Shown: one piece after another, positions 12,764-30,622 of the stretch
Position numbering within the stretch: position 1 is the first letter of the stretch
Layout of the letters: every line of letters begins with the position of its first letter
Assembly (NCBI GenBank): GCA_048885525.1
Contig: JBHLLP010000036.1
Coordinates: 1 to 34,377 of the forward strand
DNA: 34,377 nt
Source of the DNA: Candidatus Hermodarchaeota archaeon
GTDB lineage: Archaea > Asgardarchaeota > Lokiarchaeia > Sigyniarchaeales > SOKP01
Direction: 5' to 3'
Position numbers and translations under genes: made by a program
Notes under the pieces: model-generated
Database searches by the model: none
What the model was told of the DNA's origin: nothing
Seen by the model: only the letters and a program-made list of their open reading frames with translations

Positions 12764-13684
12764 TTAGGGTGTCGCTGTTTCTACTTCTATAAATCCACTA
12801 TACTTTAACCCTTCAATCATCATACCTACAAATAATTCAAACCCCTTCTCAGTCCAAAACTTAGAATTAGGGACTAAAGTCTTGTAATATTTGCTTGTTA
12901 TGTAATCAATTGAAGGATTCTCATTATACCATTTAATTAAGGAATTCTTTACCTTGAAATAAGAATCTTCCATTTCATTCAATATTTGATTGAAATGTTC
13001 ATCTTTCCATATACCAAAATGAGCTAAAGATATTGAATCTATTTCATTCTTCATACTTCTTAACTTATTAAAAGTTTTTAAAAGCTCTTCTTCATTAAAG
13101 TCAGGAGGCACAAGAGGGATAAAAAAAGCATTCTCGTCTAATCTCATAATTATAGAATCGCCTACAAAAAGATTTCTATTTTTTTTATCAAATAAAGCTA
13201 TAGAATCCATCGTATGTCCAAAAAAATTCATAACTTCTAATTCCAATCCATTTAAGTCAATAATATCACCTCCCTTTAAAGGAGTAACTTCTCCTTCAAA
13301 CGGATATACATCACCCATACCTTCATATCCTTTCATCATTCTTTCTGGATGCCGTAAATTGTCTACACCATTTTTTGCTGCTAAAACTTCAACTTCAGTG
13401 TCTTTCATTAGATTAATTAGCTTAGATAAACCTTGAGCGTGATCCCAATGAGAATGAGATAAAATGATTTTATCAATAGGATATAGCCCAAGATCTTTAA
13501 TTTTGTTTATAATTTTACGGGATTTTAATGTTTCTCCCACATCAATCATCAAACGCATTCCATTATGTTCAATAATATAAATTGAAAGAAATTTTTGCGT
13601 TCCCATGGTCATACCATCTATTAAATAATAATTATCATCGATTTTACCTTCAGAATTTATAATTGCTATATTGGTCACCTTCAA
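12764..13684 (-). CDS. MBL-fold metallo-hydrolase
   Basis: HSHWDH, GHT, VGDS and AHFG metal-binding motifs. Confidence 0.9.
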   Translation of the reverse strand: MKVTNIAIINSEGKIDDNYYLIDGMTMGTQKFLSIYIIEHNGMRLMIDVGETLKSRKIINKIKDLGLYPIDKIILSHSHWDHAQGLSKLINLMKDTEVEVLAAKNGVDNLRHPERMMKGYEGMGDVYPFEGEVTPLKGGDIIDLNGLELEVMNFFGHTMDSIALFDKKNRNLFVGDSIIMRLDENAFFIPLVPPDFNEEELLKTFNKLRSMKNEIDSISLAHFGIWKDEHFNQILNEMEDSYFKVKNSLIKWYNENPSIDYITSKYYKTLVPNSKFWTEKGFELFVGMMIEGLKYSGFIEVETATP

Positions 13685-28919: not shown

Positions 28920-29048
28920 TTGAACGGTTTAGGAAATATTATGATATTTTAATGATTCAATATTTTCTTAAACTGAAATAATTAATTTTTATACATAATT
29001 ATTTTCAATTTAAATTATAAGAATAAAACGATTACATGGTGAAACATT

Positions 29049-29759
29049 ATTAGTATTGATTGGGTTAAAGTGGAAGAAAAACCGGAAAAGAAACTATCCG
29101 TTGAAGGAAAAATATTATTGGAATTCCAAGCTAAAATAAAAAACTTAGAACAGAAATTAGAGAATACTCATAAACGATTAGAAAAAATAACAAATGAGTT
29201 AATTATAACAAAGACCAAGTTAGCTGGTTGTGAAAAAAGCCTTACAGAACTTACAGAAAGAAGATCTTCTGCCAGAAAATCTTTGGATGAAGTGAAACAA
29301 GAAAAATTACAGATTGATATTGAACTTACTAAAGTAACATCCGAAAAAACAAATTTAGAAGAGAAGTTTGATGAGGCAATGAAAAAAATTACACAACTAG
29401 AACAACAATTAAATCTTAAAGTTGAAAAATCATCAGATTTTGAGCAGAAACTATTAGATAAAGATAACGTACTTCAAGAAAAAGAAGAAGAGTTATTAAT
29501 TAAAGTAAAAGAACTTTTAAAAAAAAATGAAGAAATCCAGAATCTTAAGAGTGAAATTGAGGAAATAAAGAAAAAATTAAATGATGAGATAAAATTGAAT
29601 GATCAACAAGTTAAAAAATTTAAAGCATTTGAAGCTCAAATGTCTGAAGTTATAAATGCTACAAAAATAGTTGAAAAAATTAAAAAGATAATGGAAACAA
29701 AAGGCTTCTTATCTGACAAGGAACTTGAGCTTTTATTAAAGGAAAAAGAAGATTTATGA
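29049..29759 (+). CDS. Coiled-coil protein, paralog 1 (inferred ATT start 29049; first canonical start GTG 29070)
   Basis: Near-continuous heptads; N-terminal SIDWVK..KPEKKLSVEGK and C-terminal KGFLSDKE shared with the downstream paralog. Confidence 0.8.
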   Translation: MSIDWVKVEEKPEKKLSVEGKILLEFQAKIKNLEQKLENTHKRLEKITNELIITKTKLAGCEKSLTELTERRSSARKSLDEVKQEKLQIDIELTKVTSEKTNLEEKFDEAMKKITQLEQQLNLKVEKSSDFEQKLLDKDNVLQEKEEELLIKVKELLKKNEEIQNLKSEIEEIKKKLNDEIKLNDQQVKKFKAFEAQMSEVINATKIVEKIKKIMETKGFLSDKELELLLKEKEDL

Positions 29760-29890
29760 TTGTTAATCACTCAAGTGATCAATTCAAAATCAAATTTTTT
29801 AATGCAAAATTTATAAATAATCAATTTTAAAGACTTAAATATAAGCAAAATAAAAAAAAATTTTTAAAAATATAATAAGGTGGAAGTGAA

Positions 29891-30622
29891 ATTTCAATCG
29901 ATTGGGCTAAAGCCGAAATGAAACCAGATAAGAAGCTATCTGTTGAAGGAAAAGTATTATTGGATCTTAGATCTAAAATAAATAATTTAGAAAATCAAGT
30001 AAGTCAAAAAACCAAAGATTTAGAAAAAACTTTAGATGAGTTAAAAGCAACTAAAGAAAATCTCACCGAAACTGAGAAAAAGTTAACAACATTAAATAAG
30101 AGTTTTTCTACATCAAGTAAGGATTTTGAGAGAATAAAGGAAGAGAAGCTGTATGCAGATGCAGAGCTCAATAAATTGAGAACAGAAAAATCAAATTTGG
30201 AAACTAAATTAGCTGAATCCAGTTCTAAGGTTACAGAATTAGAAAATAAATTGAAAGAGTCCTCTATAAAAGTTGAGAGCTTAGAATCGGAAAAAAATGA
30301 TATTAAAAATCAGTTGGAAAAAGAAAAGGAAGAATTAAAAGAAAAAGTACAACAAAGAGTAAATGAAATCGAGGATCTTAAAAAAAATTTACAAAAAGAG
30401 ACTTCAGATAAATATGTAGAAATGGAGACTCTTAAAGATACTTTAAGCGCAAAAAAAGTTGAGATGAATGCTTTAAAGCAAAAAATTACTGCACTTGAAG
30501 ATACAATTTCCGAAGCTAAAGGGGCACCAAAACTCATTGAAAGCATAAAAGATATTATGATTACAAAGGGATTTTTATCAGATAGAGAGTTTGATGCCCT
30601 ATTAGAAAATAAAGAAATTTAG
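29891..30622 (+). CDS. Coiled-coil protein, paralog 2 (inferred ATT start 29891; first canonical start ATG 29918)
   Basis: Near-continuous heptads; SIDWAK..KPDKKLSVEGK and KGFLSDRE. Confidence 0.8.
   Translation: MSIDWAKAEMKPDKKLSVEGKVLLDLRSKINNLENQVSQKTKDLEKTLDELKATKENLTETEKKLTTLNKSFSTSSKDFERIKEEKLYADAELNKLRTEKSNLETKLAESSSKVTELENKLKESSIKVESLESEKNDIKNQLEKEKEELKEKVQQRVNEIEDLKKNLQKETSDKYVEMETLKDTLSAKKVEMNALKQKITALEDTISEAKGAPKLIESIKDIMITKGFLSDREFDALLENKEI

Follow-up and report, generated by a model that had tools for sequence, protein, structure and literature searches.

Introduction

In Escherichia coli, infC (IF3) and pcnB begin at AUU codons, and NCBI table 11 lists ATT, ATC and ATA, here collectively called ATH, as starts. 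The same three codons serve as starts in mitochondria and in Mycoplasma and Spiroplasma (NCBI tables 2, 4 and 5). Here we describe a tandem pair of genes for coiled-coil proteins in an Asgard archaeon that appear to begin in this way. The pair lies in a 34,377-nucleotide (nt) stretch of DNA, hereafter the window, that comprises positions 1 to 34,377 of contig JBHLLP010000036.1 from Candidatus Hermodarchaeota archaeon (assembly GCA_048885525.1; GTDB class Lokiarchaeia, order Sigyniarchaeales). We propose, with a probability of roughly 0.86, that translation of both genes begins at AUU, guided by a Shine-Dalgarno (SD) sequence, and that AUU here belongs to a working class of start codons typical of the lineage. 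Taken by itself, the assignment of ATT as the start of the two genes is very likely to be correct; that such starts reflect a general habit of the lineage, and not a form of control specific to these genes, is likely.

Measurements covering all 64 codons in E. coli place initiation from non-canonical codons at 0.01-2% of that from AUG (bioRxiv 10.1101/063800). In the archaeon Haloferax volcanii, ribosome profiling found ~30% of putative alternative initiation sites to be near-cognate (PMC7261190). A "rare ATT start codon" has also been proposed, in the Methods of a recent paper, for AtubA from a metagenome-assembled genome (MAG) of the Kariarchaeaceae, a family of Heimdall-group Asgard archaea (Sci Adv 2026, PMC13394414). 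Beyond this single-gene remark, no systematic account of ATH starts in archaea was found in the full-text literature searched.

Results and Discussion

Two closed reading frames with ATT at the predicted start

Both genes are on the plus strand, and the reading frame of each is closed shortly upstream of its conserved beginning. The frame of gene 1 runs TGA (29040-29042), AAC, ATT (29046), ATT (29049) and then AGT ATT GAT TGG, whereas that of gene 2 runs TAA (29876-29878), GGT GGA AGT GAA, ATT (29891) and then TCA ATC GAT TGG. The stop and the ATT are separated by two codons in one gene and four in the other, and no in-frame ATG, GTG or TTG falls between the upstream stop and the shared Ser-Ile-Asp-Trp (S-I-D-W) peptide of either gene. 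The sequence GGTGA (29038-29042), whose TGA doubles as the upstream stop of gene 1, ends 6 nt before ATT 29049-29051. Similarly, AGGTGGA (29878-29884) ends 6 nt before ATT 29891-29893, or 7 nt when counted in the GGTGA register. Because the 16S rRNA of the source genome ends in ...GGATCACCTCCT, which is complementary to GGTGA, both motifs are true complements of the anti-SD sequence. In clade-B orthologues, which are those of gene 2, AAAGGTGAAAGTGAA precedes the ATT.

The two paralogues are 40% identical, and their BLASTP alignment opens at I-S-I-D-W. Within the head of the protein the codon differences are synonymous, with Ser encoded by AGT or TCA and Ile by ATT or ATC. The stops, the absence of a canonical codon before S-I-D-W, the SD-like motifs, the ATT positions and the synonymous differences had been claimed in a preliminary description made from the letters alone, and each is borne out by the window sequence. 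That description also pointed out that the annotated starts are not equivalent. Indeed, an open reading frame (ORF) list restricted to canonical starts opens gene 1 at GTG 29070-29072 and gene 2 at ATG 29918-29920, and these positions do not correspond to one another.

Gene 1 carries two successive ATT codons, and the predicted start is ATT 29049, not 29046, a choice made by orthology and SD spacing. The corrected coding sequences predicted from these starts span 29049-29759 (236 amino acids plus stop) and 29891-30622 (243 amino acids plus stop). About 30 nt upstream of the gene 1 SD is an A/T-rich box, TTAAATTATAA (29010-29020), that is a candidate archaeal TATA element; a TTAAAT/TTATAT block occurs at equal distance in the clade-A orthologues, which are those of gene 1.

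A short out-of-frame ORF, ATG GTG AAA CAT TAT TAG (29036-29053, plus strand), overlaps the gene 1 SD, and its TAG overlaps ATT 29049 in the arrangement ATTAG. The closest orthologue (L004) has the same layout, which is variable or absent in others.

A family census of the start position

The census covers 102 distinct N-termini from ~60 related genomes, which are Loki-type Asgard MAGs (Promethearchaeota / Promethearchaeia). Of 36 genomes sampled from the genus, 35 contain the tandem pair, and other families in the order and class have weaker relatives. The source genome itself holds a third paralogue, on contig C24, in which the frame reads TGA ATA ATA ATT AGT ATC GAC TGG. The preliminary description had named an alignment of orthologues as one way to check its proposal. 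In the N-termini of the census S-I-D-W is conserved in frame, and the codon that precedes it is ATT in 53 N-termini, TTG in 21, ATG in 17, GTG in 4, ATC in 2, ATA in 2 and ACG in 1; in the other two, an ATG stands at a distance of one or five codons. Specifically, orthologues of gene 1 carry ATG, GTG, ATC or ATT at the position of its proposed start, and clade-B orthologues carry ATT, TTG or ATG at that of gene 2. The distribution is unchanged in an independent sample of the family. Homologues thus have ATG, TTG or GTG at the same codon behind the same SD, which upholds the proposal that both proteins begin at AUU.

The surroundings of this codon are those of a translation start. Of the 102 N-termini, 96 are preceded by an SD sequence at a distance of 4-8 nt. 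The spacer is 6-7 nt for 52 of the 53 ATT starts, whereas canonical starts tolerate 4-10 nt. Among 58 cases with ATH or ACG, 55 lack any canonical start codon in frame once the upstream stop is passed, and in 38 the frame is closed two codons upstream by the TGA within GGTGA.

Codon usage at the site is also that of a start. Leu at this position is always TTG (21 of 21), compared with 16 of 99 at an internal Leu position and a genome share of 11% (P = 9e-14); Val is always GTG (4/4, versus 9/73 internally; P = 5e-4). Ile is encoded by ATT in 52 of 56 cases (93%), compared with 38 of 93 (41%) at the genuine Ile that lies two codons further on (P = 4e-11). Such start-like usage rules out that Ile, Leu, Met and Val are conservative substitutions of an internal residue, and on this comparative evidence the codon before S-I-D-W is identified as a start site rather than as an internal hydrophobic position. 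The ATT pattern, which recurs in the third paralogue and in ~100 homologues elsewhere, is far beyond chance.

The called starts, GTG 29070 and ATG 29918, are the first canonical codons in frame, and public collections hold paralogue 2 from ATG 29918; the ESM Atlas entry, for example, begins only at residue 10, read as Met. If these starts were correct, then the stretch upstream of them would be a non-coding regulatory element. The conservation of that stretch, however, is at the amino acid level. Ser2 alternates between AGT/AGC and TCA/TCT/TCG among homologues, W5, E9, P12, K14 and G20 are invariant, and, of 16 invariant columns along the full length of the protein, 7 fall in the first 24 residues. 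Judged by this pattern, the conserved head is certainly translated. Moreover, at the column of GTG 29070, an internal Val codon in our reading, 70 of 99 homologues have Ala and only 18 have Val; at that of the internal ATG 29918, 64 of 99 have Glu, and Met is rare. The called starts lack an SD, and homologues with ATG, TTG or GTG starts begin exactly at the ATT position. The comparative data already contradict initiation at the called codons, which we regard as highly improbable.

Even less credible is an origin of the ATT codons in assembly or sequencing error, or in the decay of pseudogenes. Nothing beyond the unusual codon itself suggests such an origin, and over 50 assemblies produced independently by different studies share the same ATT. 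The ORFs are intact, syntenic and under purifying selection.

Two other codons outside the canonical set occur at the start position. One subclade of Promethearchaeota MAGs (L217, L219 and L225; near position 401) has GTT there, 6 nt after AAGGTGG; the frame reads K-R-W-A-E-V-S-I-D-W, a canonical start is absent nearby, and GUU is a possible start. The single ACG belongs to L103 (G041:C20, family f4) and lies 6 nt after GAGGTGA, where it might be a near-cognate start or an error.

Probable ATH starts across the source genome

A test of the 5' zones of 3016 long open frames in the source genome indicates that ATH starts extend well beyond the coiled-coil family. An ATH codon occurs 5-6 nt after GGTGA in 44 cases, and 23 control codons that are together five times more abundant account for 43 (odds ratio 5.3, P = 1e-13). 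No ATH excess of this kind was found behind seven decoy motifs. A conservative estimate of the excess is ~40 ATH starts, set against ~140 canonical starts with a strong SD; in two spacer registers without coding background, the ATH share is ~40%.

A Pfam scan of 20 SD-led ATH genes gives at least 12 in which the domain opens 1-12 residues from the ATH codon at profile position 1-4, and in which the first canonical start is intradomain. Genes opening at ATA include those for ribosomal proteins uS10 and uL16 (first canonical start 12 and 39 codons downstream, respectively), aldehyde:ferredoxin oxidoreductase (AOR; 30 codons) and A/V-ATPase subunit D (62 codons). ATT is the proposed start of a Ras-like GTPase (first canonical start 24 codons downstream), a GPN-loop GTPase (20 codons), CorA (144 codons) and rubrerythrin (95 codons), and ATC that of a DJ-1/PfpI protein (5 codons). 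All 18 genomes sampled from the genus, and two sister genera as well, have the ATA of uS10 behind GGTGAG. Elsewhere this gene has TTG, ATG or GTG in other genera and ATG, once TTG, in other families. By these comparisons, at least ~40 genes of the source genome, including both copies of aIF1, are assigned ATH starts with no usable canonical start.

The breadth of this gene set bears on the short ORF that begins at ATG 29036. Translation might start there and reach the main frame of gene 1 by frameshifting or by termination and reinitiation, a notion encouraged by the occurrence of ATGGTGA before several clade-A orthologues and by the overlap of the short frame's stop with ATT 29049. However, this ATG is within or beside the SD and so is not itself preceded by one. 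Among orthologues, the short frames vary in length and sequence, and no such ATG is present in paralogue 2, the third paralogue or most family members. Nor would it explain uS10, uL16 and the other cases. We therefore consider this route to be very unlikely.

Several further ORFs deserve mention. On the minus strand of the window, a third likely ATH start is found at 13667-13679, in the frame TAA TAC AAT TTG AAG GTG ACC AAT ATA GCA. The called TTG (13684) and the GTG sit within GAAGGTGA, ATA 13669-13667 follows GGTGA by 5 nt, and the 306-amino acid ORF (12764-13684) probably starts at this ATA. Pfam matches to a zf-AN1 gene (L051; G000:C4:29349-30413, minus strand) and a class I/II aminotransferase gene (L046; G000:C18:25613-26842, plus strand) begin at profile positions 11 and 4, respectively, at residue 1-3 of the ATH reading. 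Their open frames continue without a canonical start for 12 and 34 more codons upstream, where other non-canonical codons may be the true starts. At the uS10 start position of L160 (G063:C7, genus g19), TCG stands behind GGTGAG, as a possible near-cognate start or an error.

Initiator tRNA and aIF1

The initiator tRNA-Met gene of the source genome (G000:C32:9579-9689, plus strand) has an A1:U72 pair, an anticodon stem closed by three G:C pairs and the anticodon CAU, and is canonical except for a 32-nt intron after position 37/38. A pattern search of the source genome for an uninterrupted initiator anticodon arm gave no match, and the gene carries this intron. The program aragorn counts 13 tRNA genes without introns and 32 with introns in a set that is incomplete, and many tRNA genes in this genome are probably interrupted in unusual ways. 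Given an initiator anticodon of CAU, AUH codons would most simply be decoded with a third-position mismatch.

A dedicated initiator that carries an amino acid other than Met could instead read AUH and leave an N-terminal Ile. Incomplete tRNA detection in an intron-rich genome (32 found) leaves some room for such a species. However, the sole initiator-type tRNA found is canonical with CAU, and the free interchange of ATT, ATG, TTG and GTG at one site argues for a single decoding system, which gives a second initiator only a very small probability.

The genes for the initiation factor aIF1/SUI1 show the same peculiarity. Neither copy has a canonical start before its zinc knuckle: L113 (G000:C32:32281-32595, minus strand) reads ATT-AAA-GAT-GAT, and L114 (G000:C2:79571-79882, plus strand) reads ATA-AAA-GAT-GAG. 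The ATT of aIF1, which is ATC in one genus, is retained in all family members read, and the AAAGGTTGTGA block upstream of it is conserved through the family. ATH-type aIF1 starts also occur in three other families of the class, and TTG in two. This arrangement would fit a putative fidelity-factor feedback of the IF3/eIF1 kind. One could extend this thought to a rheostat of start-codon stringency, in which aIF1 would globally set the output of a distinct class of SD-led AUU, AUA and AUC starts. If true, this would place dozens of genes under control, including those for ribosomal proteins and the coiled-coil family, in parallel with IF3/infC and eIF1; we offer it tentatively and judge it to be improbable.

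Evolution of the start codon

We placed the start codons on a FastTree tree of the first 94 residues, a small number of columns that yields an only partly resolved topology. On this tree at least 17 switches between ATH and canonical codons occur at the start site in ~100 sequences. All changes at the site number 29, and neighbouring synonymous sites have 14-38. ATH, AUG, UUG and GUG would thus appear to interchange in the family at a roughly neutral rate. Since the upstream side is untranslated, inserting a single G after the ATT is enough to convert ATT to TTG. Each paralogue clade of the genus has ATT as its majority state, and homologues from other families within the order and class have canonical starts and one ACG. 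The preliminary description held that AUU had been retained since the duplication. The prevalence of ATT in all paralogue clades of the genus, with canonical outgroups, makes an ancestral ATT plausible, but strict retention is not what the tree indicates.

That description left two explanations side by side, namely selected translational control of the infC type and relaxed use of start codons. Under the first, AUU would be kept at these two genes for low or aIF1-responsive synthesis of their products. In its favor are the 52:4 excess of ATT over ATC and ATA at the site, the link between ATT and tight SD spacing, and the ATT majority across the genus, and the family-conserved ATT and ATA starts of aIF1 make an aIF1-sensitive gene set conceivable. 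On the other hand, the switches are numerous and the changes at the site match those of its synonymous neighbours, tandem partners within one genome often differ (ATT/TTG or ATG/ATT), and ATH starts on unrelated housekeeping genes mean that nothing singles out the two genes. A weak codon kept against replacement by AUG, as in infC, is not seen in the coiled-coil genes, but it is seen in uS10 and aIF1. We consider gene-specific attenuation to be unlikely. Relaxed use fits better, given genome-wide ATH starts and repeated switching, and infC-like selection is not needed, although it keeps a low probability.

A proposed mechanism and the points that weigh against it

According to the SD-guided reading that we favor, GGTGA would pair with UCACC at the 3' end of 16S rRNA and bring the codon that follows at 6-7 nt into the P site. 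There, the ordinary initiator Met-tRNA (CAU) would be accepted despite the third-position mismatch, such that the proteins would begin with Met-Ser-Ile-Asp-Trp, with Met as the presumed first residue. Lowered proofreading stringency of aIF1 may be the permissive factor, and ATH starts would need to work at a useful efficiency. The observations beneath this proposal are the closed frames, SD complementarity and spacing, the equivalence of homologous starts, codon usage, genome-wide enrichment and the initiator tRNA gene.

Several points count against this reading or limit its simplest form. ATT is much preferred over ATA and ATC at the family start site, and uS10 holds ATA and aIF1 holds ATT across many genomes. 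This preference and constancy imply some selection on the particular weak codon, and a purely relaxed model therefore falls short. Third-position mismatches are normally rejected by aIF1. In Sulfolobus solfataricus, aIF1 destabilizes complexes on non-AUG mRNA, according to work cited in PMC6237735. In addition, the candidate TATA-like box may put the transcript start near the SD and leave a very short leader, for which reason the role of GGTGA as an SD in the two mRNAs remains putative. Finally, the outgroup families have canonical starts despite a similarly low GC content (24-35%), and AT pressure was therefore rejected as a sole explanation.

Features of the proteins and their neighbourhood

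The pair reads as lineage-specific coiled-coil proteins of ~240 amino acids with a head-rod-tail layout, in which a helix of 200 residues separates a conserved head from a short tail. An AlphaFold2 model of the gene 1 product, built with 48 homologues (predicted local distance difference test score 88), has within the head (residues 1-24) a short N-terminal helix (5-10), followed by the 200-residue helix (18-218) and a C-terminal helix that bears the invariant K-G-F-x-x-D motif (KGFLSD in this protein). The third paralogue (L003; G000:C24:27972-28820 region, minus strand) has 282 amino acids when read from ATT, with the same head and rod and a C-terminal CPxC...CxxC zinc ribbon in place of the KGFLSD tail. 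A fourth clade, whose head contains ...EEEPEKIFKVEG, occurs in other genomes of the genus and was not found in the source genome.

Pfam gives only sub-threshold coiled-coil matches, among them Rod_CreS (PF19220) at 25.9 and 19.2 bits against a cut-off of 100 and Filament (PF00038) at 23.2 bits against a cut-off of 40. The likeness to crescentin and intermediate filaments is in the head-rod-tail layout and the rod of ~200 residues; the scores are far under the cut-offs, and the resemblance is compositional. Structural look-alikes in the ESM Atlas score below 0.4 in template modelling (TM) and are uninformative. A public protein search yields nine relatives that are unnamed or labelled "chromosome segregation ATPase". 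Across the genus, genes for a membrane protein and DUF72, then the pair, then an N6/N4 DNA methylase gene appear in the same order, which suggests no function.

Implications and comparison with known systems

Gene callers of the Prodigal and GeneMark types admit only ATG, GTG and TTG, and in these genomes they would misplace or truncate a few per cent of N-termini. The coiled-coil family loses its most conserved 7-9 residues in this way, and other ATH genes lose P-loops, zinc sites or whole domain starts. Truncated calls harm structure predictions, expression constructs and the phylogenies of Asgard proteins that are used to address the origin of eukaryotes. Strict AUG selection is a hallmark of the eukaryote-type initiation core (aIF1, aIF1A and aIF2) that Asgard archaea possess, and a lineage in which AUH behind an SD is routinely accepted would offer a natural system for studying the basis of stringency and its evolution. 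The family census is, among the comparisons made here, the cleanest evidence for ATH starts: ~100 homologous start sites that toggle among six start codons amount to unusually clean comparative proof and a ready test set.

A single-gene parallel is AtubA, another Asgard gene deposited with a truncated N-terminus, the conserved form of which is restored by an ATT at a plausible distance from a ribosome-binding site. That case is argued for one gene from structure prediction, without comparative or genome-wide analysis, and it comes from a different Asgard class (PMC13394414). The near-cognate sites of Haloferax differ in having been set aside as possible false positives and in being alternative or internal rather than the only starts of conserved genes (PMC7261190). 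Mitochondria and Mycoplasma/Spiroplasma resemble this archaeon in having AT-rich genomes with Ile-type codons as regular starts, but theirs are reduced genomes with bacterial-type initiation, whereas here the genome is that of a 3.6-Mb free-living archaeon with an otherwise standard code.

The E. coli genes infC and pcnB share with the window genes a near-cognate AUU behind an SD that is read by the normal initiator tRNA, as proposed here, and in both systems the gene for a fidelity factor bears such a start (IF3 in E. coli, aIF1 here). In E. coli, these starts are rare, very weak and tied to autoregulation. In the archaeon, ATH codons appear to open dozens of genes, including those for ribosomal proteins, and they would do so with initiation machinery of the archaeal/eukaryote type (aIF1/aIF1A/aIF2).

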